DNA of 63,703 nucleotides, counting the filler, from Raillietiella orientalis (Eukaryota), in assembly GCA_036172245.1 (NCBI GenBank). It is 4 parts of 4 records of this genome, joined end to end, with 100 filler letters (N's around TTAATTAATTAA, not from the genome) between each part and the next. Parts side by side here need not be neighbours in the genome. Positions count along the whole stretch, not along the records: positions 17,410 to 34,716 come from JAYWIR010000249.1; 3 more parts are not named here. One strand, given 5' to 3'. The translations under genes were made by a program, and so were the position numbers. Positions 12,001 through 34,716 of this stretch are shown one piece after another; within the stretch, counting starts at the first letter, position 1; every line of letters begins with the position of its first letter. Under the pieces are notes generated by a model, which saw only the letters and a list, made by a program, of their open reading frames with translations, ran no database searches and was not told the origin of the DNA.

Positions 12001-15000
12001 TGAAATGTCGGACTCTTCTTGATGATCCTCTGAAACCAGGAAATTGGGAGGCTATTCGGCTCTCCATGACGGGAATTTTCCACTCACTGCAAATGGATGC
12101 TTCGTGAAGAGGCGCAAAAATGCAATGGTTAAATCTTCTGCTTTCGAGTTGATTACAAAACCTGAAAAGTGGCAAATTTGGACCAAAGAATGAATCAGAG
12201 CGAAGGAGAATATTGCCTTTCAAATTCCGGCATTGGTTACTATAAAAAAAACACAGAATGCAAAGTGCCACATCCTAATGAAATGTCGGACTCTTCTTGA
12301 TGATCCTCTGAAACCAGGAAATTGGGAGGCTCTTCGGCTCTCCATGACGGGAATTTGCCACTCACTGCAAATGGATGCTTCGTGAAGAGGCGCAAAAATG
12401 CAATGGTGAAATCTTGTGACTTGGAGATCATTACAAAAGCTGAAAAGTGGCAAATTTGGACCAAATAATGAATCAGAGCGAAGGAGAAGATTGCCTTTCA
12501 AATTCCGAAATTGGTTACCATAAAAACACCACAGAATGCAAAGTGCCACGCCCTAATGAAATGTGGGACTCTTCTTGATGATCCTCTGAAAGCAGGAAAT
12601 TGGGAGGCTCTTCGGCTCTCCATGACGGGAATTTGCCACTCACTGCAAATGGATGCTTCGTGAAGAGGCGCAAAAATGCAATGGTGAAATCTTGTGACTT
12701 GGAGATCATTACAAAACCTGAAGAGTGGCAAATTTGGACCAAATAATGAATCAGAGCGAAGGAGAAGATTGCCTTTCAAATTCCGACATTGGTTACCATA
12801 AAGAAAACACAGAATGCAAAGTGCCACATCATAATGAAATGTCGGACTCTTCTTGATGATCCTCTGAAACCAGGAAATTGGGAGTCTCTTCGGCTCTCCA
12901 TGACGGGAATTTTCCACTCACTGCAAATGGATGCTTCGTGAAAAGGCGCAAAAGTGCAATGGTGAAATCTTCTGCTTTCGAGTTGATTACAAAACCTGAT
13001 AAGTGGCAAATTTGGACCAAAGAATGAATCAGAGCGAAGGAGAAGATTGCCTTCCAAATTCCGGCATTGGTTACCATGAAAACAACACAGAATGCAAAGT
13101 GCCACTTCCTAATGAAATGTCGGACTCTTCTTGATGATCCTCTGAAACCAGGAAATTGGGAGTCTCTTCGGCTCTCCATGACGGGAATTTGCCACTCACT
13201 GCAAATGGATGCTTCGTGAAGAGGCGCAAAAATGCAATGGTGAAATCTTGTGACTTGGAGATCTTACAAAAGCTGAAAAGTGGCAAATTTGGACCAAATA
13301 ATGAATCAGAGCGAAGGAGAAGATTGCCTTTCAAATTCCGAAATTGGTTACCATGAAAACAACACAGAATGCAAAGTGCCACGCCCTAATGAAATGTCGG
13401 ACTGTTCTTGATGATCCTTTGAAACCAGGAAATTGGGAGGCTCTTCGGCTCTCCATGACGGGAATTTTCCACTCACTGCAAAAGGATGCTTCGTGAAGAG
13501 GCGCAAAAATGCAATGGTGAAATCTTGTGACTTCGAGTTCATTACAAAAGCTCAAAAGTGGCAAATTTGGACGAAATAATGAATAAGATCGATGGAGAAG
13601 ATTGCCTTTCAAATTCCGACATTGGTTACCATGAAAACAACACAGAATGCAAAGTGCCACGCCCTAATGAAATGTCGGACTGTTCTTGATGATCCTCTGA
13701 AACCAGGAAATTGGGAGGATCAGCGGCTCCCCATGACGGGAGTTTGCCACTCACTGCAAATGGATGCTTCGCAAAGAGGCGCAAAAGTGCAATGGTGAAA
13801 TCTTCTGCTTTCGAGTTGATTACAAAACCTGAAAAGTGGCAAATTTGGACCAAAGAATGAATCAGAGCGAAGGAGAAGATTGCCTTTCAAATTCCGACAT
13901 TGGTTACCATGAAAACAACACAGAATGCAAAGTGCCACATCCTAATGAAATGTCGGACTCTTCTTGATGATCCTCTGAAAGCAGGAAATTGGGAGGATCA
14001 GCGGCTCCCCATGACGGGAGTTTGCCACTCACTGCAAATGGATGCTTCGCAAAGAGGCGCAAAAGTGCAATGGTGAAATCTTCTGCTTTCGAGTTGATTA
14101 CAAAACCTGAAGAGTGGCAAATTTGGACCAAATAATGAATCAGAGCGAAGGAGAAGATTGCCTTTCAAATTCCGACATTGGTTACCATGAAAACAACACA
14201 GAATGCAAAGTGCCACTTCCTAATGAAATGTCGGACTGTTCTTGATGATCCTCTGAAACCAGGAAATTGGGAGGCTCTTCGGCTCTCCATGACGGGAATT
14301 TTCCACTCACTGCTAATGGATGCTTCGTGAAGAGGCGCAAAATTGCAATGGAGAAACCTTCTGCTTTCGAGTTGATTACAAAACCTGAAGAGTGGCAAAT
14401 TTGGACCAAATAATGAATCAGAGCGAAGGAGAAGATTGCCTTTCAAATTCTGACATTGGTTACCATGAAAACAACACAGAATGCAAAGTGCCACATCCTA
14501 ATGAAATGTCGGACTCTTCTTGATGATCCTCTGAAACCAGGAAATTGGGAGGCTCTTCGGCTCTCCATGACGGGAATTTTCCACTCACTGCAAATGGATG
14601 CTTCGTGAAGAGGCGCAAAAATGCAATGGTGAAATCTTCTGACTTCGAGATCATTACAAAACCTGAAAAGTGGCAAATTAGGACCAAATAATGAATAAGA
14701 GCGAAGGAGAAGATTGCCTTTCAAATTCCGACATTGGTTACCATAAAAAAAACACAGAATGCAAAGTGCCACGCCATAATGAAATGTCGGACTCTTCTTG
14801 ATGATCCTCTGAAACCAGGAAATTGGGAGGCTCTTCGGCTCTCCATGACGGGCATTTGCCACTCACTGCAAATGGATGCTTCGTGAAGAGGCGCAAAAGT
14901 GCAATGGAGAAACCTTCTGACTTCGAGTTTATTACAAAAGCTCAAAAGTGGAAAATTTGGACGAAATAATGAATAAGATCGAAGGAGAAGATTGCCTTTC

Positions 15001-16533
15001 GAATTCCGACATTGGTTACCATGAAAACAACACAGAATGCAAAGTGCCACGCCCTAATGAAATGTCGGACTGTTCTTGATGATCCTCTGAAACCAGGAAA
15101 TTGGGAGGATCAGCGGCTCCCCATGACGGGAGTTTGCCACTCACTGCAAATGGATGCTTCGCAAAGAGGCGCAAAAGTGCAATGGTGAAATCTTCTGGTT
15201 TCGAGTTGATTACAAAACCTGAAGAGTGGCAAATTTGGACCAAAGAATGAATCAGAGCGAAGGAGAAGATTGCCTTTCAAATTCCGACATTGGTTACCAT
15301 GAAAACAACACAGAATGCAAAGTGCCACGCCCTAATGAAATGTCGGACTGTTCTTGATGATCCTCTGAAACCAGGAAATTGGGAGGATCAGCGGCTCCCC
15401 ATGACGGGAGTTTGCCACTCACTGCAAATGGATGCTTCGCAAAGAGGCGCAAAAGTGCAATGGTGAAATCTTCTGGTTTCGAGTTGATTACAAAACCTGA
15501 AGAGTGGCAAATTTGGACCAAAGAATGAATCAGAGCGAAGGAGAAGATTGCCTTTCAAATTCCGACATTGGTTACCATGAAAACAACACAGAATGCAAAG
15601 TGCCACTTCCTAATGAAATGTCGGACTGTTCTTGATGATCCTCTGAAACCAGGAAATTGGGAGGCTCTTCGGCTCCCCATGACGGGAATTTTCCACTCAC
15701 TGCAAATGGATGCTTCGCAAAGAGGCGCAAAAGTGCAATGGAGAAACCTTCTGACTTCGAGTTCATTACAAAAGCTCAAAAGTGGCAAATTTGGACGAAA
15801 TAATGAATCAGAACGAAGGAGAAGATTGCCTTTCAAATTCCGACATTGGTTACCATAAAGAAAACACAGAATGCAAAGTGCCACATCATAATGAAATGTC
15901 GGACTCTTCTTGATGATCCTCTGAAACCAGGAAATTGGGAGGCTCTTCGGCTCTCCATGACGGGAATTTTCCACTCACTGCAAATGGATGCTTCGTGAAA
16001 AGGCGCAAAAGTGCAATGGTGAAATCTTCTGCTTTCGAGTTGATTACAAAACCTGAAGAGTGGCAAATTTGAACCAAAGAATGAATCAGAGCGAAGGAGA
16101 AGATTGCCTTTCAAATTCCGACATTGGTTACCATGAAAACAACACAGAATGCAAAGTGCCACGCCCTAATGAAATGTCGGACTGTTCTTGATGATCCTCT
16201 GAAACCAGGAAATTGGGAGGATCAGCGGCTCCCCATGACGGGAGTTTGCCACTCACTGCAAATGGATGCTTCGCAAAGAGGCGCAAAAGTGCAATGGTGA
16301 AATCTTCTGCTTTCAAGTTGATTACAAAGCCTGCAGAGTGGCAAATTTGGACCAAATAATGAATCAGAGCGAAGGAGAAGATTGCCTTGCAAATTCCGGC
16401 ATTGGTTACCATAAAAAAAACACAGAATGCAAAGTGCCACATCATAATGAAATGTCGGACTCTTCTTGATGATCCTCTGAAACTAGGAAATTGGGAGGCT
16501 CTTCGGCTCTCCATGACGGGAATTTTCCACTCA
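1..16533. repeat. 278-bp tandem satellite array, ~59.5 monomers, open at the window start
   Basis: Unit 'attggttaccatgaaaacaacacagaatgcaaagtgccac...gattgcctttcaaattccgac' recurs every 278 bp (1, 279, 557, 835...); two 277-bp monomers carry the same 1-bp deletion (~6592, ~13263); array ends mid-monomer at ...ttttccactca (16533). Confidence 0.99.
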
Positions 16534-17309: not shown

Positions 17310-17409
17310 NNNNNNNNNNNNNNNNNNNNNNNNNNNNNNNNNNNNNNNNNNNNTTAATTAATTAANNNNNNNNNNNNNNNNNNNNNNNNNNNNNNNNNNN
17401 NNNNNNNNN
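17310..17409. other. Assembly gap with artificial TTAATTAATTAA spacer
   Basis: 44 N + TTAATTAATTAA (stops in all six frames) + 44 N. Confidence 0.98.
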
Positions 17410-17990
17410 TCTACCTTAAGAGCGCTGCGCCGTCGCGTTCGGATGTGTTCCTGCGACACCCGAATTCTTTCCCCGTCCCAATTCTGCTCCTCCCTGTCCT
17501 CTCGTTGCAGCTGGCGACTGCAATAGGCATTCTACACCAACTGGCTCTGCACCTTTAATTCTTCCCACTCGGTCCTCTCCCACAAATGCTATTTTACCCG
17601 CAACTACTTCGTCTGCGATTGCTAAAAAAGTTCCCCCTAGGAACCTCACTCCTCCCCTGACTAATCTTCCCCTTCCACCCCTCGAAAATGCAGATATTAT
17701 TCTCACCCAGGATAATCATCTACATGTCAAAGTCCCGGTAAACAGGGCATTAGCTTGCATCATTCCCTCTTGTAGTTGGTTTACTAAAACGGAGGACCCT
17801 AAAAGAACTCTGAATTCTCTAAAGAGACATCTTAAAAGTCACCATAAACTCCCCTTCTATTCACATGACCTCATTTGCCGAAAATGTGTCTATCATTAGT
17901 TTACCTACTCAACACCATGCCTGCTTTAAAAATGATAGAAAGCCATCCCCTCCTCTAGTCAACCTCACCCCTTCTCGATTCCAATGCTCC
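17410..17990 (+). pseudogene. Zinc-finger region fragment of a family-A paralogue (NeSL/Utopia-like N-terminus)
   Basis: Translates to ACIIPSCSWFTKTEDPKRTLNSLKRHLKSHHKLPFYSHDLICRKC / SLPTQHHACFKNDRKPSPP..FQCSH, aligning to the same region of ORF 19143-20909; frameshift near 17887. Confidence 0.85.
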
Positions 17991-18600
17991 CATGTGTCTT
18001 GGTCCCGCGCCTCCCTCCCCCGCCGCCTCCCGTACACCCTGCGTACACACGGGCGGTCGAATCGAAGCGAAGACCGCGAAGACCGATCATCCCTCGGTTT
18101 GAACGCTTACGGCAGAATGCGCCAAACCACGCAAAGAGCAGCAATAATCCAGCTGATGAGCCACCAGGCTCATCAGGCATGAACAGAGTGCGGTCTGAAT
18201 GTTCGGCTCGTCCGAGAACACACGTGCGACCACGTAATAATCAGCAATGCCCACGTGGGACGAATGCCAGATTACGCTCGCACGAGAGCCCGACACGCGC
18301 CGATACGGTTCCAGAAACAGCTCTCCTGGCTCCCAGGGTGAGTTCTGAGCCTCCACCGATGGACAGCCAAAGCAACACGGCTCCCATTCTGACGATGGAG
18401 GAGGACGTTCTCATCGTTTTCCATCCAACGACCAGGAACATGGAATGTCCATTACCGCGATGCAGATGGGCCACCTCCAGGATGGAACCCAAGCGGTTGC
18501 TGGGGTCGCTTCGACGACACATACAAACCGCGCATCGGATACCGGTACGTGGCACCCACCTCCTCTGTCGCCGCTGTAACCAGCGCTTGGCCATACCTGT
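17991..18600 (+). pseudogene. Zinc-finger region fragment of a family-B paralogue
   Basis: PPPVHPAYTRAVE..RPIIPR and EEDVLIVFHP..MECPLPRCRW..LGSLRRHIQTAHRIPV..LLCRRCN align to ORF 23354-25651 (PPVHPAYVRVVE; MACPLPRCRW..LGSLRRHLRTAHWIPV..LVCSRCN). Confidence 0.85.
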
Positions 18601-19010
18601 ATGGTTCGAATTCCCCTCCTCCGTGCAAGATGGCCCATAGTGAGCTCCGATGAAAGGATTAACAGCACTAACTCCACCCTACGACCGGACATATTCCTTC
18701 AGAACTCTACAACCGCAGCAATTGTGGATATTGTGATCCCCTTTGAAAATAGGAAAATATCCTTTAACAAAGCGCGCCAAACCAAGATCACCAAATATTC
18801 TGATCTTGCGAACCAAGTACGTGAAAAAGGTCTGGCCACGATCAACCAGGCAATCGTAGTAGGCGCGCTGGGTTCTTGGGATCCCGAAAACGACGCGGTC
18901 GTAAGACTATTAGGTGTTCCCAAAAACACCATTATATCCTTAGCCAACCAAATGTGTCGCGAAATGATCAAGTTCTCGCGCGAGATTTATATTTCCCATA
19001 TCGCAACGCC
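18601..19010 (+). pseudogene. Restriction-like endonuclease (RLE) domain, NeSL/Utopia type, lacking the upstream CCHC knuckle
   Basis: LRPDIF..IVDIVIPFENR..FNKARQTKITKY..VVGALGSWDPEND..SREIYISHI: PD..D core, K..KY, GALGSW and terminal SRxIY..H motifs typical of NeSL/Utopia RLE domains. Confidence 0.88.
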
Positions 19011-19142
19011 AAACGAAGCCAACCTCACTACCCCATCTGAGTTCCAATCTGCCAGGATCCTACTTCTAATAATCTCAGTCCTGAACTTCCCACTTTTTAG
19101 AAGGATTCCCCCGAAATACTACTACAACTCCACGAAAATCCG

Positions 19143-20909
19143 TTGCTGCCACTTCCTCGGTCCCCGCTCAAGACATCCCCAGAACTGCTGGAAGCCATCG
19201 CGACCTTTCAGAGGAACAAAGATGCGTTTCAACCGCTCCCTGATGAACCTGTTAAGTTGATTCCCCGGGCTGACAGTGAGGAGCCGCATTTAGCCGCTCG
19301 TCCTCCGTCTGCAAATAGTTTTCCCTCGTCTAGTGCTCCTTCTTCGGTGGCTGTATCCTATGCTGATATATTGAAGAAGACCCCTGTTGTGAAGATTTCC
19401 AAGCTTCCAACATCTCCCTCTTTGTTTCGTTCCCTCGATGTTCGTCGTCATGACTCCCCCATCAAGCCCATCCTTTCCATGATCCGAAAGGTCTCATCTA
19501 GTGTAGATCTCTCTTGTGCGATGAAAAAGATTTCTTTGTCTTTCACAAAAAAGAGCTCCCAGAACCCTAAAATTGTTTCCCCAACTTCGTCAATCTCCTC
19601 ATCATCGTTGCCGACGCCCGTGCAATACAGCGTCGTTTCTCAACCCACTAGTCCTGCAATCCCGCTGGTGTCTTTGTCGCCCTTAGGAGAGTCTTCTGAA
19701 CATTTCACATCGCCTCCTCAGATTATTTGTTGGAGATCTGCAATACGAGCTGGCAAAAGAGCGCACTCTACCACTCCCATGCCTTGTAATAACGTTTCTA
19801 CAGTCTTTCTCCGCCCAAATTCCGATCCTCCCTGTCCTCTGGATTATCGACATATCCCCACACCAATAACTAATAGACTTACGTCTGGGTCACAAATTTA
19901 TCCTTTGAGAACTATGAAATATCCTTTTCGTTCATACTCTGTTTCTCCAGCGCGATCAAAGGACTTCCCTACCCAACAATGTCCATCTACTACCAATCTA
20001 AACTCCCTCACAGCATCTTTTACACCTGTACGCCCTCCTTTGCCTATGGCACCTCGTCACCCCATCGTTATATGTCCACAACCAGTTACAATCCCCCGTA
20101 CTGGAAACCCAACACCACCCCTGATAACCTTACCCATTCCCCCACTGCAGAATGAGGATATCCTACTTACTAGGAGTAACCACTCATCTGTCAAATATCC
20201 GATAAGCAAGGCACTTCGTTGCATAATCCCCTCTTGTGACTGGGCCACTAAAACAATGGAACCCAGAAGAACACTAGCCTCCTTAAAGCGACATTTAAAG
20301 ACACACCATAAACTCCCTTTTTATACCCACGACCTCGTGTGTAGGAAATGTCACTCCAACATTACCTTACCCACCCAACACCATGCATGCTTTCGAAACG
20401 ATCATAAACCATCTCCCCCCAAAGTTAACTGCTCATCAACAGAATATAAATGTTCCCATCAGAATTGTTCATGTTCCTTTACCTCATCCAAAGGTCTTCA
20501 AAATCATATAAGATGGCATAAAAGAGTGCTAGGTAGAGCCAAATTAAGAAACCCTCGGCAGGCTAAAGATACAACGCCAATCTCATTATCTAACAAGTTT
20601 TCCTTGCTCCAAACGAGTGAATTATCCATAAATGAACCTGTTTCTGTTCAAAATCTTCCCCCTTCCACTATAAACCACTCCTGCATCCAAATGCCTCAAG
20701 ATATCGGCAACCCTCAGCCATTAAATATTCCTAATCCTCCACCTCCTGCTGAGACCATGCCCCATCACAGGACACTTTGTCGTGGTCCACCACCATCCCT
20801 ATTGGATCCGGTTTCATCCACATTAATATGGACGAGTTCTGCCACTCCTACAAATGAATCCTGGCAAGTCACACTCGACTCCCTTTCTGAGATCATCTCA
20901 CTTATCTAA
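19143..20909 (+). CDS. Pro/Ser-rich protein with triple zinc-finger module (N-terminal part of element A ORF)
   Basis: 588-codon ORF; CIIPSC..LKRHLKTHH, CRKC..HHAC, YKCSHQNCSCSFTSSKGLQNHIRWH; the frame continues past TAA 20907-20909 into 20961-21650. Confidence 0.75.
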   Translation: MLPLPRSPLKTSPELLEAIATFQRNKDAFQPLPDEPVKLIPRADSEEPHLAARPPSANSFPSSSAPSSVAVSYADILKKTPVVKISKLPTSPSLFRSLDVRRHDSPIKPILSMIRKVSSSVDLSCAMKKISLSFTKKSSQNPKIVSPTSSISSSSLPTPVQYSVVSQPTSPAIPLVSLSPLGESSEHFTSPPQIICWRSAIRAGKRAHSTTPMPCNNVSTVFLRPNSDPPCPLDYRHIPTPITNRLTSGSQIYPLRTMKYPFRSYSVSPARSKDFPTQQCPSTTNLNSLTASFTPVRPPLPMAPRHPIVICPQPVTIPRTGNPTPPLITLPIPPLQNEDILLTRSNHSSVKYPISKALRCIIPSCDWATKTMEPRRTLASLKRHLKTHHKLPFYTHDLVCRKCHSNITLPTQHHACFRNDHKPSPPKVNCSSTEYKCSHQNCSCSFTSSKGLQNHIRWHKRVLGRAKLRNPRQAKDTTPISLSNKFSLLQTSELSINEPVSVQNLPPSTINHSCIQMPQDIGNPQPLNIPNPPPPAETMPHHRTLCRGPPPSLLDPVSSTLIWTSSATPTNESWQVTLDSLSEIISLI

Positions 20910-20960
20910 AATAAATATAACCTACGACCCTACTCCTTTAAACCTCGAAATCGATCCAAA

Positions 20961-21650
20961 ATGACGCCTAGTGCAAAAATTCTCCAAAATTTATACCACA
21001 CCAAGTTCTACAGTAAAAACATCAACTTTATTAAAGAATGCTTCCGCCTCACACGAAGCAGGATACACCCCAATCCTATGGCCAACTTGCAACTACGCAG
21101 CTGGCAAATGGATATACTCAAACTCATCAGGACTACACCAGATGCCAGAAAGATTTACTGGTACTTCGACCCAGAAGGAGGCCATGGCAAAACAACATTT
21201 GCCAAATTCCTCTACTTGAAAAAGGGCGCCATTTACATGCACTCATGTAAAAAGGCAGATGCAGCCCACATCTACAACGGCGAACACGTCATCGTTGTGG
21301 ATCTGACCAGAGACAATCAAGAAATAGTACAATACGGCTTCATCGAAACCATGAAAAATGGCATCATGTTCGCATCCAAGTATCAGGGATCCATTAAATA
21401 CTTTCAACCACCCCACATCATAGTGTTCTCCAATTGGGAACCAAATTACGAAAAAATGAGTATCGACAGATGGAGAGTTACAGATATCTTCCTCAATTCT
21501 CAAAGCAAATTGTGTCCATGGATGTTGGATGATGCTGGAGCCACCTTGCCTTGGGCCTGCCCTTCAGGCCCTAGTACAGGGCAGTCCCGCGACTCGCCAG
21601 ACTCCAGTGAATCCACTTTGTCACCCCCTTCCCAAGATATTGAGAAATAA
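20961..21650 (+). CDS. SF3 helicase / P-loop domain resembling the C-terminal half of nanovirus/alphasatellite-like CRESS Rep; no HUH domain
   Basis: WQ..PDARKIYWYFDPEGGHGKTT (Walker A), VIVVDLTR (Walker B), YGFIETMKNG..SKY, HIIVFSN (motif C), MSIDRW (Arg finger), all intact. Confidence 0.88.
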   Translation: MTPSAKILQNLYHTKFYSKNINFIKECFRLTRSRIHPNPMANLQLRSWQMDILKLIRTTPDARKIYWYFDPEGGHGKTTFAKFLYLKKGAIYMHSCKKADAAHIYNGEHVIVVDLTRDNQEIVQYGFIETMKNGIMFASKYQGSIKYFQPPHIIVFSNWEPNYEKMSIDRWRVTDIFLNSQSKLCPWMLDDAGATLPWACPSGPSTGQSRDSPDSSESTLSPPSQDIEK

Positions 21651-21783
21651 AATGAATTCACAATGCAAGTTTTCATGTTTTTCACATATACAAGGAAGGG
21701 TCTCTTAAATGCTTAAATTCCACATAGACAGTGCGAGTCAGTCTAATCTTCCCAGTCCCGTGAATTGCTCCTCCCCCCATTGA

Positions 21784-21918
21784 GGCAATACGCCCCGAAT
21801 CGTGTACTCAGCGATTCGAGCAGCTCGAGACATCTACTTTGCCCATATCACCACCCATCCTTCCTCCGGAGCCGAACCTCCGGTGCAGGAGCTGACACCA
21901 GCCGCCCACCCATCCTAG
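21784..21918 (+). pseudogene. C-terminal remnant of RLE domain
   Basis: Frame not in the ORF track reads PRIVYSAIRAARDIYFAHIT...* and matches EMIKFSREIYISHIAT at the end of the 18601 RLE. Confidence 0.6.
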
Positions 21919-22087
21919 TGCAGCGCGGCTTTAATGGACCTCATCGAAATCTGATCGCTCAGTGTTGCGTCCCTCTTGTGAACTCTGCGTCCTCGATGAA
22001 CACTTGCGTGTTCTTATGTTCAATTCCCCTCTTAGGACTTACAAAGTGCAAAGACTTTGTAACAAGCGATAAACGTGGACTCAATAA

Positions 22088-22495
22088 AGTTACTCCCGCC
22101 GTTTACTCGCATTTCGTTGAATCTCTTCACTTTGACACTCAAAGCACTCGGCAGAAATCACATCGCGTCAACACCGGCAACGGCTATCGCGATGCTTTGT
22201 TTTCATTAGGCAGTCGGATTCCCCTTGTCCGTGCCAGTTCCGAGTCGATCGCTGCATACTGCCCGAAACGCTGCGGGACCACCGAGCGACCACCGACCGG
22301 AAATTCGGGCGAAGCCATTCCACGACTTGGAATACCGTGCAAGACTGCGAGGTGAGACCATCATCACTACGGAGGGCGCGCCATCAGAGTGCGCCACGGG
22401 CCCTGAGCGGAACCGCCGGCACGTGCGCGCCCCGACCGAGCGGAGAAACGCCAATCTGCCGATAGCCTGTTCTTTCGTGCCGCTCTGCCCCAGCT
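22088..22495 (-). rRNA. Degenerate 28S rRNA fragment upstream of the R2 site (probable D8 expansion segment plus conserved core)
   Basis: Reverse complement reads GAACTGGCACGGACAAGGGGAATCCGACTG...GTTGACGCGATGTGATTTCTGCC...AAACGGCGGGAGTAACT, with substitutions at conserved positions. The GC-rich 22250-22495 part is inferred to be expansion segment. Confidence 0.9.
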
Positions 22496-22769
22496 GACGC
22501 AGAAGCACTGCCTCATGTTCCCACTTCCCTTTCCCAAATCAGCAGCATCTCTCATAACAATCGTAAAACGACTCCACCAATATCTTCAGCGTGAATACAC
22601 CTAGTCCTTCAAGTGGCACTACTTTAAACACTCCACTCCATTTTTCAATCGATAATTTCCACCAAGGAATTCACCCACTCTCCACTTCCGAACATCTCTG
22701 AACGATTTCGTGCCCTAATTTCCAAACCTAAAAAGAAAGATGAAGAATAGAAATGCTGAAGTCGAAATT

Positions 22770-22885
22770 GATCTCCCTCGCTGATTTTTTCAAGCCCGTT
22801 CCCTTGGCTGTGGTTTCGGTAGATAGTAGGTAGGGACAGTAGGAATCTCGTTAATGCATTCATGCGCGTCACTACTTAGACGACG
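22770..22885 (-). rRNA. Degenerate 28S rRNA fragment downstream of the R2 site
   Basis: Reverse complement reads CGTCGTCTAAGTAGTGACGCGCATGAATGCATTAACGAGATTCCTACTGTCCCTACCTACTATCTACCGAAACCACAGCCAAGGGAACGGGCTTG, the conserved LSU core. Confidence 0.92.
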
Positions 22886-23353
22886 GACGTGTCTGAGTGG
22901 AGCTCCGGCGCGTCATGAAGTTTGACTTTGGCTTGTGAAAAACTTACCTTGATGACCCCTATTGAATTTTCGTTCTGTGCATCCCCTGCCCACAGTGAAC
23001 CTTATTACCAACTTTTTTGATTGTGTGGTAATTTTTGTGGCTACTGTAGACATTCTCGTCTCCCGCCTGTGTGCTGCCATGGCTTAGACCAGAGAGAACA
23101 CTTGTCGGGAAGGTAAGAGGGATCGACAGTCCGAATTGACATTCTGGGCCCCCATCACGCCCTTGTTAAATACTTTTAACCATTTTTGTGTGGATCTGAA
23201 CCACTGTGGTCGTTAAGCGTGATCGACCACATCGGTTCCACAAACTCCTTTGTTCCCTCGCTCTGCGCGGGAGAAGTTAGCGTCCCCTCTGAGCGATCTG
23301 ATTGGTCGACTCAGCGAACTCGCTTTCCCATTGGTTCCGCCGCATAGTTCCAC

Positions 23354-25679
23354 GTGACTAAGCGAAGCGTCAGGCGCCATCTTGCAACGATGCCTGCGTC
23401 GCATTGTACGCTCTCCGTGGAGCGCGAACTTTGGATTTCCCACGGAACTGACTCTCCTGTGCCTCGTCCTCTCCCAGACTGTGTGTTCGCCACAACGGCA
23501 AATGACATTAAGAACCGTGTACGAAACCTTAAGGCACACTTGAGCCGTATACATGGCGTACACATCCCGGCAGTTCGTTTTTTCTGCCTACAATGCCACA
23601 AGAGTGAGAATACAAACATGCTGCTCTCTCAGCATCGTTGTCTCAACCCTCCTGTGGAACTCCCTGAGATGCTACTTGCTCTCAAATACAAATGCCCGAA
23701 ATGTAATGCTTCCTTTGGGCGCCCATCCTTGCGAAAGGCGCATCATAAATGGAAGCATTTACACATGGACAGAGCCCTTGGTGCGGCAAACGAAGGCCGC
23801 GAGGACCTTGGAGATGAAATTGATTTTCCCAACTCTTGGGATGAGGCAGATTTCCCCGACTCCTCATGCAGCTCCATGGACACTTCACTATTGCACCAGA
23901 AGTGGTTCAACGTGCCAACAACTGCCAGTCACAGTACTCCTCACCAGAACGAGGATCGCCCTGGATCTGCAAAGTGCAAGGGACGTAATGAAACCAGTGA
24001 ACTGATGAACGCTACACCCTCCATCCTTGACATGGAAGTACCCATGGCATCGGCGATGGAAGAGCGTCGCCTTTCTCTGCCACCCCCTCTCCTTGGACCG
24101 CCTGCCTCGGTTCCGATGGAGGGGACAAGAGACTTCCACCAGGCTCTTCAGCCACGAGTTCTCTTGACTCGACTTTCCCAGGCTGAGCTGGACTACTTCG
24201 CCCGCCCTCCACAGCGCAATGTGGTATCTAGAGTGCCCACCCCAGTGCAGGAGTCGCGGCTGTCTGGTCACTCCACCCTGACTCTTGCCTCTCCTTCTCA
24301 AACTGGGGCCGAGCTGCTTGAGCAAGTCTCCCCGGGAAGCGAGCACATCGTACTGATACCTCGCTCTCCCCCACCTGCTCCGCCTGTGCATCCAGCGTAC
24401 GTGCGCGTGGTCGAGAGAAAAAGACCGAGACGCCGCCAGCAGCGCCCAGTTATCCCTCGCCTCCAACGGCAATTACGAATCACGCAGGCTAGCAATGGCC
24501 GAATAAACTTGGCGGATAACGATCGGAGACCCAATTGCGTCCCATCTCCAGTGCCTCATGTGGCCGAACCGTTGGCTCCGGCTCGCCCCCAGGGAACTGT
24601 CACTGACCTGGCACCCTCAGTGCCATCGGCCTTAACTGAGGACGACGTCCTCCTAGTGTATCTGCCATTAAACACCACCATGGCTTGTCCACTGCCGCGC
24701 TGCAGGTGGCATACCAGCACGCAACAGGCGAAATCCACCTTGGGATCGCTGCGCCGCCACCTGCGCACTGCACACTGGATACCGGTTAACAGAGCCCATC
24801 TAGTGTGTAGCCGTTGCAATGCCAACGTGCAGATACCTGTCTGCAGGCATCCCTGTGGCTCGCGGGTGATCCGATTCGAGGAGCCAGCGCCACTCGCCTG
24901 CCCTGAGCAAAACTGCGATAAACATTTCTTTAATCGCAAAGCTCTTGCGAATCATGCTCGGTGGCACGACTCGCTAGGCAGAGCAGAGGAGCGGCGGTAC
25001 ACGCGTGGTCTTAGAGGCCAGAGAACTCTTCCAGTCCCGCCTCGAGCTCGCCAACATACCACCGTTAGCCCACAGCCAACCAGCCAATCCTCCCAGCGGG
25101 TAATTGAACATGTTCCCCAGACGAGTGCACCCTCCATCCCATTGCCTGATCCCTCGCGCAATCAGGAATGGCAAATAGTGACAAGTCGGCGGAAACGTGC
25201 TCCTAATGCCCTGGGGAATCTGGCCCGTGGAGCTAGGCATCCGCCCAGACGCATTACCTCCTCGAGTGAGCCTGAATCTCCGCGCCTCCCTACCCCTGTC
25301 CCTGGCTCACGATTCGCCGTCCTGGACGAAGAGAACATTGGTGAACTGACAGTTTCACCCGACAGCATTGCTGCCCCTGCCCGTTCCTCAACGTCCCCCG
25401 TCCGGAGACGCGCCCGTGACAACCAGCGTGAAAATCAGAGAGCGCTTGGACCCCCTTGGAGAGACTGCAAGGCTTCTTCAGGACATTGGGACACAACCAG
25501 CAACAACAGACAATTGGGGCCTTGCGATACGAGCGCTGAACACTTCGTACAGTGCAATTCGGAACGGCCTGGGCTTACGCCCTTTCACTGTTCCCATGAA
25601 CAATGTGCGACCAATGAGCCTGTCTCCACGCACTCTACAGCGGTTATATAACCAAAACCCTCGACCGTCGTTTAGGTAA
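23354..25679 (+). pseudogene. Element B N-terminal protein with two triple zinc-finger modules; frameshift near 25450
   Basis: Module 1: PLPDC..LKAHLSRIH, CLQC..HRC, CPKCNASF..HHKWKH. Module 2: CPLPRC..LRRHLRTAH, CSRC..HPC, CPEQNCDKHFFNRKALANHARWH. Continues in the 25368-25679 frame (DNWGLAIRAL..LRPF..TLQRLYNQNPR). Confidence 0.8.
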
Positions 25680-25692
25680 CAAACAATTATCG

Positions 25693-26239
25693 GCAAATCC
25701 TCTCGCCAACCTACGTCTCAGAGAGTGGCAACTGGAACTCTTCGACGTCATGAAAAAACCAGCAAACCAGAGAACCATATTCTTATTTTACGACACATTT
25801 GGCAACGCAGGAAAAACTACGATGGTCAAAGATCTAGACCGCAAAAGAGGAACCATCTACGTGCATTTCTGCCGAAAAGCTGACGCAGCCCATATCTACA
25901 ATGGGGAATATCGTTGTCACGTGACACGCGTGTCTTCACACGTGACAACCAAGAATACTACAATATGACTTTGTAGAATCCCTCAAAAATGGGATACTCG
26001 ACTCCAAATATCAAGGATCGATGAAGTACTTTGACGTTCGCCACATACTCATATTTGCGAACTGGGAGCCCGACAACCCAAAAACGAGTGCTGACAGGTG
26101 GGTTATAAAAAATATTGGCAAGATACTACTTGAACAATTAATGAAGAAGGATCCATTCTCCCATGGGTTTCAAGCCCGTGACCCGCCTGACTCCTCTTTG
26201 AGCACGCTTTCACCAACAAACAGCCAAATAAGTCCATAA
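25693..26239 (+). pseudogene. SF3 helicase domain (CRESS Rep-like), frameshifted
   Basis: NPLANLRLREWQ..RTIFLFYDTFGNAGKTT..KADAAHIYNGE / KYQGSMKYF..HILIFANWEP..SADRW..RDPPDSSLSTLSP, collinear with 20961-21650. Confidence 0.85.
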
Positions 26240-26327
26240 AGACATTTTTTATTACTAGTATGTTGCTAAACCTCTGTTCTGACTCAACTCCAAATAGAAC
26301 ATTTGGGTTATTCTAAATATACGGTAG

Positions 26328-26759
26328 CCTTTTCTTAAAGTAGACTCTGTATTTTCCCTCCTCCGTACCCGGTGGCCCGATGCTTCGGTTTACCGTCGAG
26401 TTGACCTAGATGATTCCACCCTCCGACCAGACATTTTCCTTCAGAACCCCTCAACTGCTGTGATCCTTCAAGTAGTAATTGCTTTTGAAAATCGACGTGC
26501 TTATTTTCTCCGTGCTCGTCAAACGAAAATTCAGGAATACGCCGATCTTGCCAATAGTCTACGTGAACAAGGCTTCACCACCATCAATCAAGCTGTTGTG
26601 GTTAAAGCACTTGGATCGTGGGACCCGACAATGCTAGTTGTCCTGAAGCTAATCGGCATTCCGATACATGCCATCAAATCTCTTACCAGACATACGTGCA
26701 GTGAAATGAGAAAATTTACACTTGACACTTACATCTCCCACATAGCTTCTAATGATTGA
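26328..26759 (+). pseudogene. RLE domain of element B, second catalytic Asp replaced by Gln
   Basis: LLRTRWP..STLRPDIFLQN..VILQVVIAFENR..ARQTKIQEY..ALGSWDP..DTYISHI, homologous to 18601-19010. Confidence 0.85.
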
Positions 26760-29700
26760 ACCAATGCCCCAACGGAAACAAAGGCTCAAACTGCACAAGA
26801 TTTCTTTTCGCAGCATGAAAATCCTTCTACGCATAAACACCAACCTCCCGTCGTCAAGGGCATCGGCTTCAATGTACTCCCCACGCCGTCTGTAAACACT
26901 CAAATAGTTCAAATTAAGCTACGACAGATGGACGATAATCGAATTCGATATCCACTCCGACAGCAGAAAGACCAGCTGGACCATGGAGTCGACCGATCCA
27001 AAAGAACAGGATTCCCGTTAAAGATGTGCAGGAGATAAGATTGTACGAGTAGATAAGGGGATGGAAATAGCGCATCAACTGGGGCATTACTGCAGTTCCA
27101 GAAAGATACTGGAACTAGTAGCAATGACAACCACTGCCCTCATACTCAAACGGAACGATAGGCCTACGTCCTATGGATTGAATGGACTATCTCCCAGGAC
27201 GCAATGATGCCCTTCTAGTCCCCACCAGCAGGTACACACACAGACATGCAGTTGCCTACCAGGCATTCAAGGGACTCTTGCTCAAGCTGCAAATTGCCCG
27301 CACATCGAGAACATGACCTTTCAGGGAGAATCATATGCCGAAGTCATACCGAGACCAGAGCCACATCACATCGGGGCAAGGTACATAAATGGGATTCCGA
27401 AGGCACCATTCAACGATGCAGATGCCGACACAACTGTAGAGAGACTTGGTTCTTTCATGACCAATGTCTACCCTCGATCTAGTTGTGTTTATCCCCGCCA
27501 CCATGTCTCGGGATGTTGTTGAGTCTAGGAAGGACTATGTACCTGAATGGGACATGTTCTGTTCTAATGTGCCCAACAAGGTGTCAATTGTTGCGCCGAA
27601 AGATCAGCCTGTCGGAGTTACCAGCGAGATCACAGCTGATTTACGAACCAACCTTCATAGGGCAGCCACAAGGGTCGAGTCCATTAGGCCTACAGTTTTC
27701 GTCTCTAGCAGCCCAGAAAAGCATCCCAGCGAGATAATCCTCGCGACGGACCATGACATATAAACACTCAGATGACTGTCACGCCTCATAATTCATTGTG
27801 ATAACCGGTTGTGATTTGCCATTGTTGATCTCACTTATTCTGCTGAAGATAAAAGTTATTTTCATACACGGAGTAAGGTTCGTTTCAATATTTGTACAGA
27901 GTGACGAGATTTTTAGATGGAAGCACTAGCAATTTAAGATGTAATAAGCATGCGCAAATGCCATTTAAAATAACAACTCAAATTAGGCTCAAACACTGTT
28001 GCAATTTCCTTCACGCACATGAAAGAGCCATCGAACCAGATATCCTCCAAAGAATCAATCCCAGGAAATTTTTCCTTTCTTTTCTGCTACCTTCTCAAAT
28101 TTGCTTTTGTTTTGTAATCCCATCTGCCTCACGGGAGCCTTGTAATAGTCTCACGCACCTCTAAGTCTGGTTGTTTTCCCTAGGAACAGGATACGCACGA
28201 AGAAAAGAATTTGCAGTTCAGTAAGACTCGTAGGCAATATATTTCACAACTTCTGATTACAAGCATACTGATTAGCAAAAAAAAAAAAAAAGAAAAACAA
28301 ATTTTGGCTTTGCTGTATGGAAATTTATGTACAGTCAACTTTCAGTGCAACATCTGTCACAAACCTCAAAAAAGGAAAAAGTATAAATCAAGATTCACAA
28401 CACATCATGTTGAAGAGAATGCACTTCAAGACCAAAAGACTTTCATTTAGCTTCAATTTATAAACATTCAACAACTCCAGACTTTCTATCATCATGATTG
28501 TCATGAGAATAATGTAAACAAGTATCAGGAATGAACAAAAAATTGCATTTTGGAATTTTTTCATGCAACAATATCACATTCCACTTCGGTGCATCACATT
28601 CCACTCCAAACGAATAACGCAGCAGAAATGCCCAGACAGAAACATGCAATCCTGGAAAACTCTGTTACTACTCTCTTATTTTCAAACTATCAAGAGAAAA
28701 GTGGAAACAACCAAATAGTAGCAATGCAATTATCAAAGAAATCATCAAAATCATAACCCATACGAAAATTCCAGTGTTATCACTTTCAATAAGGAACATT
28801 GAACTTTCAAACTGAAAATCCAGTCTCCATATCACCAATTCCAAATTAGAATTTCCAAGAACTTTCTTGGCTTTGGCATCTACAAAAAATTGCAGTCACT
28901 TTTAATATTCATCCACTTGCTGCATTTCAGATTAACTCAAGACGCATACCAGATTGACAAAAGTAAATCACAAAAAATCACCACTCTTTTTCACATTTTG
29001 ATCACAGAACACATTGGTTCCCAGTCTGTACAGAGTTAAATAAGCAATTCAGTTTCCCATTGTGTTAACCTTATTGTGTTTTCCTCTTATCTATTTGTAT
29101 TTGCTCTTTAAATACTATCCGTAACCCTACTTTCAACTTTGCAGGGCCTTCCTATTCCAGAAAGAACAAAGTCTCCCACATAAGAGAATTTCCCACTTTA
29201 CCAAATCTTTGGGGAGTTCCATCTTCATTGATTTGCTATTTTATTTCCTTTCTATATTTGATTTTATCAAAATCCACTGAAACATTTTGGGAGCCACAAA
29301 ATGGAAAACCAGGAAAATAACTATTAACCATTCACTACTGTCTCATGAAAATACACAAACATTTTGCGTTGCACTGAATTTTGCATGCATTTTTTGTCAC
29401 CACATTCTACCTAATTTTCCAAATACATATTTCAAATATAATCTAGTAACACGTGATTCCTTTAAAAACTAAGGCTAGAAGACTGCCACGTGGCAAAAAA
29501 ATGAAATAAACTGTAGAATCTGAAGTGAAAATACTCTGCAACAAATTGTTCGAATCCCATTATCTATGCACTTCATGAACGACGATAAACTCTGAAGCAC
29601 CTTGCAGAACACCCCATAAGCTTTGGTATTTCCAGACAATAATAAAACAATGATGTTCAGATACATGATAAACTAATTGCACAAGCTCGGAGGAAAGGAT

Positions 29701-32700
29701 TACCTCTTCCTCGCATCTCATCCAGAAATGTGTTAGAAGTGACAGAATCCGTGGCATGAAACTCCTAGACTGAAACACCCTATCCTGGGAGCACAGTCTT
29801 TCAAGAGATGCTAATCAAACGCACCAAATCAAGTAATATGCTTGATAACCAAACCTCAAACAGGGCATCTTCTTTAGCCCTTTAGACGTACAAGAATACC
29901 CTTCTGTAGTTCCTTTATCAAATGCTAATGGGATCTCTACAAGAACATCCCGACAACTTCACATTCGTCATCTGCCAGAGAGCAAGCATGCCACTTGCTA
30001 CAAATCAACAAATTGCACCAACACCCACTTCAGCAAGAACTACTCCTCTTCCCACAAGCAGATCATCTCCTTACATCACAATGCAATCCACAGGTGATGA
30101 TTCTCATCTCAAAATTTCCTCCTCTATAACTGAACAGCAAGATTCCATTTCAAACCAGTTTCAAGGGAAAATTCTGCGATTTGCAATAACAACCGAAAGA
30201 TGTGCAAACATGCCAGTTAGCCACAGATACATTGAACGATGTCATCCATACCATTCACACACACTTTCGAACCATGGGTGCAAGCCCAACCTTGGATGGA
30301 CTTACCCAGGTGATTGGCACTCCCGAACATGCCCACCCCTTATCTGGGATTTTTTCATTTTGGGATGCAACCACTATGACAGGGTGTCATGAAAAACATT
30401 GCCAATTCCAAGGTCTTAGCATGTGCAGCTGATCTCGTGATTATAACCAGAAATCCAAACAATCTGCAATCGGCCTTAAACCTGACTGGGGCACTCACAA
30501 AATGCCTTGGTGTACTGCCAAACACAAATTAGTGTAACTCACTTCACTGCCAAGCGAAAACACCGACATATCTGGGAATAACTTTCTTCTCCATTTTCAA
30601 GAGCCTCAAGTGTTGCATTCGACTACCACACAATTTGAAAAACCCTACGATTTGAAAAAGTCAACTCTACCCTCAGCATGCAATGACATTACTGACAGCC
30701 ATCCAGACTTCCCTCTGGCTTAATGTACATTACAAAACAGTTCAGCAACATGCACAAGCATCCCATGCACATCTCATCAGCACAGCAGGCCCTGCTGTAA
30801 CAAAGCATGGCATGAACAAAAACGTTGCAATCCTCATCACAACTGCTGTTCACAGCAGTGCAAGTCCAACAGTCCCACAACCTTTCCTGCTAAAACTCAT
30901 AACATCCCAAGTCTTGCTGAATCATCTCATCACAACAATCAGAACATCAACACACCCTTTTCCCATTCATGAGCTTTCCTGTCAGCAATCACCATCACAG
31001 TAAACGTGCAAAGTGGAACGGGACAAGGATGCAGCTTTCAAATTTTTAGGAGGGCGCCCTGACTTTGCAACTTCACGGCCTTCTCGATTTTCAAAGACTG
31101 AAAAAAAAAAACAGCAGCATTGCAAGTGAACTCCTTTCAACTCCTTTCTTTGCTCCCCATCACTTCAAATGAAATAACAAGCATTCCAGCACTTTTCTTT
31201 TTCCCGATTCTTGCAGCCATTTTCAAAAGAGCAAAAATTACTTCCTTTACCGTAAAGTGCTCACTGCTAACGGCACCTTCCCTTTCCCATCGATCACATA
31301 CTCCTCGAATGCCTACATGCCTTGCAACCCGACCATTCCACCATCCACACTTTGAGCCACAGCATTTCTTCCAAACCGAAACTCAACCGTGCAGCGCCAC
31401 GCCCACTTCCACCGGAAAGCGCAGCCGCCCTCTACCGCTCTTCCCGCTCTTCCGCCTCCTCCCGTGCGCTTCAAGATGTGCATTTCGAGGTGGAACAGAC
31501 AGCGCGGAGTTCGATCTCTCCAAATCTTTTGGCAACAACAGCTTCCCTTCAAATCGCACCTTTCCACTCTTCACCACTCTTCAATGATCCTTTCGCAATG
31601 ATTTCCCTACGTCTTCTCCACTGAAGACATTCCTCGGTTCTTCCACCCATGTCGGTGTTCTTGTGCAATCTGAGGTCTCCTCCGAATGCACAAGAGGCTT
31701 CTCACGCTCTCACACTTCTCACGTCACTTTTATGATTTGTTTGGGAAGTGTTCCATCAGCGGGCGCGCTTTTTCCAAAGGTGCTGCACATGTACAATGAA
31801 ATGAATCGAGTTTTAGATTCTCTTATACACAGAAAAGCTGCTTTCCATCGTAAGGACGAAACCAAATCACGCTTGGAAAGGGAGAACCCTTTCCATGCTT
31901 GGCTTTTCGAGATTGAAAATTCGTACAGAGATTCTTTCACGAAGCTTCCAAGGATATGAATTTCAATTCAGAACGGTGGTGGAGAGAGAACAGCAATCGG
32001 GCACGTCGGAACGAATATCTCACTTGTCCTGATGAAAGCAACACCAGGAATGAGCTTGAAACAAGTTTGTGCTTGTGATTAAATTAGCATTAAATTCTAC
32101 GGATATAAGAATGAAGGAAGGAATCTTTGCAAAAAGAGATCATTCATTGGAACTGCCTATCTTGCCTCCAGGACATCAGCCTTCCTGACTTGCTGAAAGG
32201 ACGAAGGGAAGTGCAAGCTGAACTGCACAGATGCGGGAAATTTTTCCTTAGACTGCAACAGTAAAATCTGATGTCCAAGAATATGTGTTTGCTCCAAGGC
32301 TCAATGCTTTTCCTGCCTGAACGTACTTTTGCGATCTTTGATGCTCCTCACCATGGCCAAGATGATAGTGTTCTCGCTCACAGAATCACACAGAGGACCC
32401 TGCAGCCTGCGGCTTTCATCTTCTGCCGTTTCTCTTTCCGTGGAATCGAGAACACTGGTCACAAAAAATGGCATTCATGTAGCAACCTCTCCTTCTCATC
32501 ATCACACAAATTTTTTCGAGAGTGATGACTTTATTGTTGGTTTCTCACCGCTGACAATATTTTGCTTCCTAAATGCTGTGCAGCTCCTTTCACAGGCAAG
32601 AAATTCATATTCTTTATTTTGCAAATCCCATCGGAACGATGCTCTCCATTTGCAAGAGCATTGGTTTCTCCAGAAAATTGGATGGATCGCCCTTGGATGG

Positions 32701-33267
32701 ATGCTGCTTCTTTCTTTACCAAAACTCGGAAAAGCTTTCTTCATGAATTCGGAGTTCACCATCTCACCTGCTCTTCAAATCGCCTCGATTGGCCATTGCA
32801 AGCACCAGGATTCGTGCTTCCACCTTTCTTAGGTGCGGATGAATTTCAATTAAAACTTGCATCGCAAGTTGGTTTCTTGGAATACGTGTTTTCCCGCGCT
32901 TTCAGTGGGCCTGCATTTCTTTTCCCTTATTTTTCCCCAGAGTTATGTGAATGAGAGGGGATGCATAAGCCTCTCTTTTTCTGATTTCAGATTTTCAATT
33001 GTATGATGTTCAGTGTGAGAAGTCAGCACGAGTGAAGAAGCTTCGTGCAGCTCATCAGATTCCACCGAAACCGAGGAAACGTGCCGTCCGACACACAAGT
33101 GAGTACCTTTTTCTGGTTATTAAATAGTCATGTAATTTTGAACATCTGTTTCAAAGCCATCTTCCGAATCCGAACCCATGCATTCAACATATTTTCTCTT
33201 CAGGCTAACTTTTCTGTGCATTTTGGCGAAATCGTGAGACTGTGATTCTCTAGAGGAGGATTTTTCT

Positions 33268-33699
33268 TTGGATCCGAAAACTCTTCTTATATCCATGCAG
33301 GACAACGACTGCTCCGCGTCATTGAGCAACTGCTTTCATCCAAAGACCCAGGCTTTCAGGAGAAACTTGCCAGAGATTGAAGAGAGTTTAATCGGAATGA
33401 AAGCAGGGGAGCAAAACCCTGGGTCTCCTGTGGCAGGAAAGGAAGAAAAATTCAGTATTAAAGTACAGAAAATAATGAAAGCTGGTCCTCAGGTTTTTGA
33501 CCATGAACTTGCAAATAAGCTAGGATTAAAAGATTTTGCAATGCTTGGAGAAGTTAGAAACCATAGAGTAATTGGAAATGTACCTGTATATTGTAAGATG
33601 TGTAATAAGAAACAGCTGTTTCACAAAATTGATTCCAATTATGACTCAGCATTACCAACTGGCTTTGTGAAGGCTGTAATACAAAATAGCATGCTCTAA
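33268..33699 (+). CDS. Hypothetical host exon/ORF with a CxxC motif
   Basis: 143-codon ORF in AT-rich DNA; a donor-like GTGAGT at 33100 and pyrimidine-rich AG sites lie upstream; no family recognised. Confidence 0.2.
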   Translation: MDPKTLLISMQDNDCSASLSNCFHPKTQAFRRNLPEIEESLIGMKAGEQNPGSPVAGKEEKFSIKVQKIMKAGPQVFDHELANKLGLKDFAMLGEVRNHRVIGNVPVYCKMCNKKQLFHKIDSNYDSALPTGFVKAVIQNSML

Positions 33700-33886
33700 C
33701 ATTCGTTATTGAATATATATTTCTGTTTCTTATACGCTAATCAGTTCGTAAACTTCATCTACTTGCACGTGTGAAAAATCGATAGCATCAATTTTTTTAC
33801 CAACACCCCTAAGCATTTCCATCACACTTCCTCCAGGATTTTTACAGGAAAGATGATCTAGTAGCCTCGTTATCTCTGCTTTTCTA

Positions 33887-34255: not shown

Positions 34256-34261
34256 AAAGGG

Positions 34262-34630: not shown

Positions 34631-34716
34631 TCTCTCAGACAAATTACATCACTCCTCCATTTTTCATTCTTCATTACGTTCCCTCTTCAAATCCAGCCTT
34701 CTTAGTTTCATTCAAA

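Follow-up and report, generated by a model that had tools for sequence, protein, structure and literature searches.

The window analysed here, by which we mean the whole 63.7 kb stretch of Raillietiella orientalis DNA (GCA_036172245.1), is a concatenation of four contigs that are separated by three identical linkers (N44-TTAATTAATTAA-N44, at 17310-17409, 34717-34816, and 51972-52071). All of the helicase-RLE element (RLE, restriction-like endonuclease) and 28S features lie inside contig 2, JAYWIR010000249.1, which occupies 17410-34716 (17.3 kb). Contig 1 is mostly a 278-bp satellite (59.5 copies, 93% matches). Non-LTR retrotransposons have left remains with RVT_1, and in one case an APE endonuclease, on contigs 3 and 4, which have a 3.2 kb stretch in common at 92% identity. 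One DNA sequencing run and no RNA run shares words sampled from the window (a fraction of 0.08), which is uninformative on habitat or expression. The features of contig 2 that enter the argument are as follows.

17420-17896, plus strand: copy A0, zinc-finger module (ZF profile E 8.3e-33), cut at the contig start (17410) and ending mid-module
17939-18637, plus strand: copy A1, proline-rich stretch and B-like zinc-finger module (ZF profile E 3.1e-35)
18616-19013, plus strand: copy A1, R2-type RLE (RLE profile E 3.9e-63), with the PD, D, and K-x2-KY residues present
19101-20906, plus strand: copy A2, 602-codon open frame that encodes a Ser/Pro-rich region and, at ~20133-20555, a zinc-finger module (ZF profile E 3.9e-37)
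20910-21650, plus strand: copy A2, CRESS-Rep-type linker and SF3 helicase, with no HUH nuclease domain (Pfam PF00910 E 7.8e-5)
21784-21918, plus strand: copy A2, what is left of the RLE C-terminus (positions 160-191 of the RLE profile, E 1.8e-4), then a stop codon
21919-22088, plus strand: copy A2, 3' UTR of 170 nt ending in AATAAA (22083-22088)
22088-22230, minus strand: 28S pseudogene fragment from the 5' side of the R2 site (LSU_rRNA_eukarya 2121-2264, ending GGGAGTAACT; Infernal 99.3 bits, E 6.3e-24)
22231-22789, no strand: spacer between the 28S pieces, GC-rich from 22231 to ~22500 and AT-rich in the remainder
22790-22885, minus strand: 28S pseudogene fragment from the 3' side of the R2 site (LSU model 2293-2388, starting CGTC; Infernal 72.2 bits, E 7.5e-17)
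22886-23347, plus strand: copy B, 5' leader of ~460 nt, from the 28S junction to the first ORF (fold z -2.5, a modest value)
23348-25651, plus strand: copy B, ORF1 (767 codons), which encodes two paralogous zinc-finger modules at ~23456-23800 and ~24620-24997 (ZF profile E 1.4e-37)
25618-26236, plus strand: copy B, SF3 helicase whose coding sequence spans two frames (helicase profile E 1.9e-20 and 9.9e-23)
26328-26756, plus strand: copy B, RLE in the next frame (RLE profile E 1e-57)
26757-26905, plus strand: copy B, partial 3' UTR with no 28S flank beyond
26908-27018, plus strand: copy C, weak remnant of the helicase C-terminus (KLSYDRW; helicase profile positions 275-305, E 1.4e-3), direct repeat D3

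The sequence-only reading had described two helicase elements, A and B. The helicase is indeed present, but three points escaped that reading: A is composite and comprises at least three copies, namely A0 (A2-like), A1 (B-like), and A2; the copies encode an RLE; and no reverse transcriptase (RT) was found in them. In total, profile searches of contig 2 return five zinc-finger modules, three RLEs, and four helicase matches, all on the plus strand and all within 17420-27018. These belong to at least four or five copies of deeply diverged lineages, arranged head to tail on the plus strand. Comparison of the A and B proteins yields three shared parts, that is, the zinc-finger module, the SF3 helicase, and the RLE.

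The individual copies are preserved to very different extents. A0 is ~70-73% identical to A2 (20106-20429) at the nucleotide level. A1 resembles B: its 17939-18637 segment matches 24350-24841 of B (41% identity over 206 aa, tblastn E 5e-20), and the two RLEs are 54% identical in amino acids. In A1 the RLE is joined straight to the zinc fingers, such that positions equivalent to 24843 and 26353 of B are fused by a deletion of ~1.5 kb in which the helicase was lost. A short CTGTAT-like microhomology at this junction would fit either a deletion or a template switch. Splicing was considered as the cause of the missing helicase and rejected, as no GT...AG is found at the corresponding points in B. 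In A2, a lone in-frame stop (20907-20909) lies between the 602-codon frame and the helicase frame, which encodes Walker A (GGHGKTT), Walker B (VVDL), and motif C (FSN), and most of the RLE has been deleted. The B helicase is 43-47% identical to that of A2 (tblastn E 6.6e-39), and it ends in the same C-terminal tail and stop codon. In the B RLE, the second acidic residue is Q in place of D.

The order of parts common to the A2 and B lineages is fingers, helicase, stop, RLE, and short UTR. Given this common order, with a short UTR following the RLE, the 170-nt UTR of A2 that ends at 22088 is a believable true 3' end. The start of this UTR is weakly similar to 26837-26905 of B (17 of 1000 shuffles reach the score), its fold is no better than that of shuffled sequences (z -0.07), and the region after the A1 RLE has no similarity to the other UTRs (369 and 927 of 1000 shuffles reach the respective scores). 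Since A0 ends mid-ORF and the UTR of B is cut short, the copies do not form a clean stack of complete 3' ends.

All five zinc-finger modules have C2H2 spacing. The ZF profile has 209 matches in the PDB, which are mostly generic C2H2 proteins and include residues 26-98 of the R2 entry 9nl2, its N-terminal fingers (E 0.0018). When a profile of the A1 and B RLEs was searched against the 177,635 distinct PDB sequences at E<=10, all three proteins matched were R2 proteins, in each case over the C-terminal RLE (best 9nl2, E 1e-6) and with the PD, D, and K-x2-KY residues aligned. A further 17 short RLE homologues were found; those with names come from arthropods (spider, thrips, and tick), and some of them have a CCHC motif upstream. 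No such zinc knuckle was found upstream of the RLE in these copies: with a profile that includes the CCHC-bearing homologues, the match begins no earlier than position 48 for A1 and position 42 for B, and the translated frames upstream of the RLE contain no C-x2-C...H-x4-C motif.

The helicase is of the CRESS Rep type. An exhaustive HMMER search gave 7495 library matches at E<=0.001, 51 of them at E<=1e-30. The Viral_Rep HUH domain, a typical feature of CRESS-DNA virus Reps, is present in 9 of the 12 best helicase matches scanned, and the best ones are Reps with Viral_Rep plus RNA_helicase; P0006 and P0007, also among the best matches, are helicase proteins without HUH. The neighbours of the helicase in a language-model atlas belong to Cressdnaviricota, and alignment with the Reps displays invariant G, K, D, and N columns. 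As this alignment begins after Rep motif III, the HUH nuclease is missing from these elements, and Viral_Rep has no Pfam match in any A or B ORF. Judged by profiles and alignments, then, the elements are shown to combine C2H2 fingers and a predicted CRESS-Rep-type SF3 helicase without HUH with a predicted R2-type RLE. Protein word searches gave no longer relatives of either the helicase or the RLE. A metagenome scan with the finger alignment gave three weak loci that share the finger motif only, with no helicase, RLE, or rRNA, and there were no relatives in a viral collection scanned with the helicase or in prokaryote genomes scanned with the RLE.

RVT_1 is absent from the 13 and 22 ORFs of A and B in Pfam searches at E values up to 5, and Pfam found no RT in 26757-34716 either, where 66 ORFs (>=55 aa, both strands) were searched. 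The same Pfam library detects RVT_1 in other contigs of the window. The RT elements of the window are found only on those contigs, and the ones that were checked are APE-type or unclassified, not RLE-type. Furthermore, B leaves no room for an RT between its 28S junction and the stop codon of its RLE. With no RT found, any route by retrotransposition needs an unseen partner.

Between copies, synonymous sites are saturated (pS 0.74-0.85), pN is 0.27-0.55, and within the conserved domains (fingers, helicase, and RLE) pN is 0.27-0.35; for A0 and A2, pS is 0.74 and pN is 0.29. Synonymous saturation together with non-synonymous divergence of ~0.3 indicates that the element proteins evolved under selection. 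These values show the copies to be old lineages that would have evolved as working proteins under purifying selection, and not recent duplicates. This pattern bears on whether the copies are mobile at all. Instead, rDNA-derived heterochromatin could happen to house a host gene family in tandem or viral Rep genes that became endogenised, or the contig could be a product of repeat mis-assembly, and in keeping with this the helicase is closest to viral Reps, neither an RT nor terminal repeats nor target duplications were found, and all of the evidence comes from one 17.3 kb contig. (The search for terminal inverted repeats returned only short, chance-level pairs, and that for target duplications returned none.) We nevertheless regard such an origin as very improbable. 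The only PDB matches of the RLE are R2 retrotransposon proteins; truncations and internal deletions differ from copy to copy, yet the parts held in common evolved under purifying selection, as is typical of a transposon; and the HUH domain, which is required for viral replication, is absent.

The two 28S pieces lie between A2 and B, on the minus strand. The layout is A2, the 28S 5' half (reverse complement), the spacer, the 28S 3' half (reverse complement), and B. On the Rfam LSU_rRNA_eukarya model, the alignment of the 5'-side fragment runs to GGGAGUAACU, at model position 2264 as counted on the printed consensus, and that of the 3'-side fragment has high posterior support throughout model positions 2293 (CGUC, at 22885 in the window) to 2388 (at 22790). 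In faster Rfam runs these matches were broken up or absent, and Infernal recovered the 3'-side fragment once it was aligned alone. The sequence AGTTACTCCCGCCGTTTAC occurs once in the window, at 22088-22106; given that it begins at 22088, AATAAA and the 28S match share 1 nt, the final A of the former.

Between the two fragments, the consensus reads AUGACUCUCUUAAGG (15 nt) followed by UAGCCAAAUGCCU (13 nt), that is, 28 nt that include the R2 site. We take the R2 nick to fall at AAGG/TAGCC, which puts the 28S breakpoints (model 2264 and 2293) at -15 and +13 relative to the nick at 2279/2280. The 28 intervening nucleotides contain TAAGGTA, which the legend to Fig. 5 of PMC10499050 gives as the R2 insertion motif (RASIN). 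The 23-nt core of this interval, CTCTCTTAAGGTAGCCAAATGCC, has no match on either strand of the window at up to three mismatches. Infernal thus bears out what had been read from the sequence: the 3' end of A, with its AATAAA at 22083-22088, abuts reverse-complement 28S 15 nt before the R2 cut (model 2264); the 5' end of B abuts it 13 nt past the cut (model 2293); and the 28-nt core is absent from both fragments. The claimed antisense relation is likewise real, as both sets of ORFs read along the plus strand and the two 28S pieces along the minus strand.

We considered several extensions of these 28S matches and accept none of them. In Infernal's own alignment, the 5'-side fragment can be carried 11 nt further to the R2 site across a 6-nt gap; this extension is not significant, as the gap may be chosen freely and only five of the eight added letters match. 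Up to three extra nucleotides could be read as 28S on the B side of the 3' fragment, and these are not significant either. A remnant seen by eye at the 3' side of B (~26868-26890) has a local alignment score that 317 of 2000 shuffles reach, and is instead weakly homologous to where the A2 UTR begins. A 28S-like stretch within the A2 ORF (20567-20800), whose score is reached by 3 of 2000 shuffles, is treated as chance as it is the best among 215 windows tested. An Rfam search of the spacer (22231-22789) gave noise only, and its GC-rich part, from 22231 to ~22500, may be a 28S expansion segment.

By manual counts on the Infernal alignments, the 5'-side piece has ~8 mismatches at ~100 strongly conserved positions and the 3'-side piece has ~3 at such positions. 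Mismatches at conserved consensus positions make both pieces pseudogene-like, and the junctions of A2 and B are therefore not insertions in working rDNA. Contig 2 (17410-34716) as a whole is best explained as decayed, rDNA-derived, repeat-rich DNA. A2, by comparison, is nearly intact, with one stop in ~850 codons, whereas by our estimate several stops would be expected in a 2.5 kb frame that had decayed like the 28S pieces. Either A2 arrived after its flank had aged or the history of the flank has been misread. As far as sequence decay can date these events, the difference would fit a young A2 copy that landed on an old 28S flank.

The same disparity in age, with 28S pieces that look much older than A2, is also part of the case for the main rival to insertion by these elements themselves. 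Here the 28S breaks would have been made by another user of the hotspot, such as an earlier R2 with a target deletion or an element since lost, and the helicase-RLE elements would be secondary neighbours brought in by insertion into that resident element, deletion, and recombination in decaying heterochromatin. The junctions would then be uninformative on the elements' own specificity. The canonical R2 site lies between the two breakpoints, stretches of 28S are known to be lost to R2 on insertion (a passage in PMC5035012 describes a fish R2 insertion that replaces >100 bp of 28S), and the region is a graveyard of truncated and internally deleted copies. We consider this explanation unlikely, since no trace of an RT or of an R2 body is found between or beside the fragments, the breakpoints coincide with plausible true element termini (the 170-nt UTR and the leader) rather than internal points, and all copies have one orientation relative to the 28S.

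Another explanation is that the 28S pieces travel with the elements, either as 3' and 5' flanks transduced by read-through or as parts of a duplicated segment of element and rDNA, in which case their present location would not be a primary site. The AATAAA at the very end of A2 would place cleavage inside the flank and so yield a transcript that carries antisense 28S, and the pieces are short and diverged from the consensus. However, A2 and B are only 30-54% identical in protein and are thus not recent duplicates of one segment, and neither 28S piece has a second copy in the window. Moreover, even a transduced flank implies an ancestor at the same 28S position. We therefore hold this explanation to be quite improbable, more so than breakage by another hotspot user.

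The reading that we favor is site- and orientation-specific insertion by the helicase-RLE elements, with a first nick in the 28S sense strand after GGGAGTAACT and the loss of ~28 nt of target; judged on the present sequence, we consider the case for it to be evenly balanced. The 28S gene is several kb long, and chance is unlikely to have put both breakpoints as close as ~15 nt to a single site in it. They also coincide with what appear to be real termini of the elements, given that the A2 3' UTR directly follows the remnant of the RLE C-terminus and that the B leader precedes the first ORF of B. An R2-type RLE together with C2H2 fingers makes site specificity the natural expectation. It is this combination, that is, breakpoints close to one site, their coincidence with element termini, and the RLE with fingers, that leads us to favor site-specific insertion. 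The loss of target sequence also has a precedent in R2 (the fish case of PMC5035012). Against it, the 3' side of B is not 28S, and the 5' side of A is lost at the contig end. The pseudogene-like flanks, the missing RT, the lack of a fold signal in the A2 UTR, the untidy stacking of the copies, and the failure to find relatives with this architecture in the scanned collections weigh against site-specific insertion too. The sequence-only reading had gone further and proposed a new antisense target specificity shared by two families. The junctions, the orientation, and the loss of the core all stand, and the specificity itself is only partly supported, as there is one 3' junction (from A2) and one 5' junction (from B). 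For comparison, passages among PMC5035012, PMC10499050, and PMC4640811 assign R9 to another 28S site and R8 to 18S. If site-specific insertion is correct, then most A2-type 3' ends would abut AGTTACTCCC....

Under site-specific insertion, contig 2 would have repeatedly received insertions of a site- and orientation-specific family of elements. The fingers would bind the 28S beside the R2 hotspot, and the RLE would act on the sense strand, with a nick after GGGAGTAACT that lies 15 nt upstream of that of R2, such that the element is installed antisense to the rRNA with the loss of ~28 nt of target. The 28S pieces would then represent the outer flanks of antisense insertions in neighbouring rDNA units, the rDNA between them having been deleted; A2 would be the youngest copy, sitting directly on an old flank, and B would be older, inserted at full length and with its 5' junction still preserved. 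Our preferred guess for the mode of copying is target-primed reverse transcription with the RT supplied in trans. The transcript might be cut just past the terminal AATAAA, leaving a short antisense-28S tail that could pair with the nicked target. Both the truncated copies and the terminal AATAAA fit an RT acting in trans. A bolder alternative is RT-free homing among the rDNA repeats.

Taken further, these elements may belong to a site-specific, selfish class that is so far undescribed and that descends from an R2-like ancestor whose RT was replaced by a CRESS-virus helicase. They would cut the sense strand of the 28S by the R2/I-PpoI hotspot and spread through a hijacked RT or through RT-free, helicase-assisted homing. 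We offer this broader proposal tentatively and think it less probable than the insertion specificity itself. Under it, insertion antisense to Pol I transcription implies that the elements have their own promoter. Literature searches returned nothing relevant on an SF3 helicase combined with either an RLE element or an rDNA target, and no relevant title or abstract on inserters with antisense or opposite orientation in 28S; in both cases the poor coverage of subscription journals and Repbase reports makes this weak evidence.

Pending more copies, the more interesting result would be the apparent union of R2-type targeting parts and a helicase of viral origin in elements where no RT was found. 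Work on site-specific retrotransposition takes R2 as its model, and R2 is in development for gene insertion at the 28S safe harbour. If our interpretation is correct, the R2 targeting module is separable from reverse transcription and can be reused with other enzymes, the elements are a further instance of a cellular mobile element that took a gene from a CRESS-DNA virus, and the question arises of how an element without an RT is copied. Should the junctions prove secondary, the domain architecture would still demand an explanation.

Among known systems, R2 shares with these elements a C-terminal PD-(D/E)xK RLE, N-terminal C2H2 fingers, and the same 28S hotspot, and like R2 junctions the 3' junction of A2 has no poly(A) tail. 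There are differences as well. A viral-type SF3 helicase stands in the place of the RT, which is absent; the zinc knuckle is unmatched, with RLE profile positions 1 to ~41 missing in A1 and B; and the elements are antisense to the rRNA with junctions at -15/+13, whereas R2 inserts in the sense orientation at the nick. The Reps of CRESS-DNA viruses (Cressdnaviricota) share the linker and the SF3 helicase, which are 36-50% identical over ~135-180 aa, with Walker A, Walker B, and motif C in place. However, the elements are without HUH, and their helicase has zinc fingers fused to it and an RLE downstream. Helitrons and Replitrons, which have a Rep HUH endonuclease, differ in that there is no HUH here and the helicase is SF3 as opposed to the SF1 helicase of Helitrons.

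The homing endonuclease of the Physarum LSU intron, I-PpoI, has a site, which we take to be CTCTCTTAAGGTAGC, that covers the R2 site. Homing genes of this type resemble the helicase-RLE elements in placing a site-specific nuclease gene at the same 28S hotspot, one that could spread by cut-and-repair among rDNA repeats without an RT. Here, in contrast, there is no intron context, the nuclease is of another family, the orientation is antisense, and the target core is deleted; the truncated copies, furthermore, resemble incomplete copying more than homing. Finally, the non-autonomous derivatives of R2 (SIDEs) and other RT-less passengers of LINEs are short and non-coding. The helicase-RLE elements are like them in that they would need the RT of another element and would keep ends suited to insertion in rDNA, and unlike SIDEs they keep long ORFs that evolved under purifying selection.

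Copy A1 of the zinc-finger/SF3-helicase/RLE element joins zinc fingers to the R2-type restriction-like endonuclease (RLE), and relative to copy B it is missing 1.5 kb that comprises the end of ORF1 and the helicase. The junction was compared with B at 24843 and 26353:

18603-18611: junction in A1

A short CTGTAT-like microhomology is found at this junction, and GT...AG is absent from it. Based on these two features, the junction looks more like the product of a deletion or a template switch than like a spliced copy.

Both B (25946-26756) and A2 (20910-21918) have the RLE in frame +1 with respect to the end of the helicase frame, and in each case the helicase ORF is closed by a conserved tail, DSSxSTLSP..., followed by a stop. 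There is no ATG near the start of the RLE frame in either copy. Frameshifting, reinitiation and splicing are possible routes by which the RLE could be translated.

The window contains three identical linkers, each consisting of 44 N, TTAATTAATTAA and 44 N:

17310-17409: linker
34717-34816: linker
51972-52071: linker

Thus, the window consists of four joined contigs, and neighborhood across the linkers is an artefact of the joining that reflects no real adjacency. The first contig is almost wholly occupied by a 278-bp satellite (1-16533; 59.5 copies, 93% matches). The approximately 7 kb past copy C (27019-33800) contain numerous plus-strand open frames, all of them short, and have no similarity to Pfam, to rRNA or to other parts of the window. 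At 33890-34285 (-), phosphoglycerate kinase (PF00162) is matched weakly, with an E of 8.5e-5 that falls short of Pfam's cut-off, and this stretch may be a gene fragment. Retrotransposon sequences are found on other contigs:

34817-38000 (-): APE-plus-RT non-LTR retrotransposon, copy 1
59679-62854 (+): APE-plus-RT non-LTR retrotransposon, copy 2
40468-42993: RT remnant
46263-48059 (-): RT remnant
49105-50160: RT remnant

The two APE-plus-RT copies, which lie on separate contigs, share 92% identity across 3.2 kb.

Two of the top-ranked relatives of the element helicase in the protein library, P0006 and P0007, have no Pfam match to the Viral_Rep (HUH) domain, and P0006 carries a tandem pair of helicase units. 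Both proteins may be members of related cellular elements.
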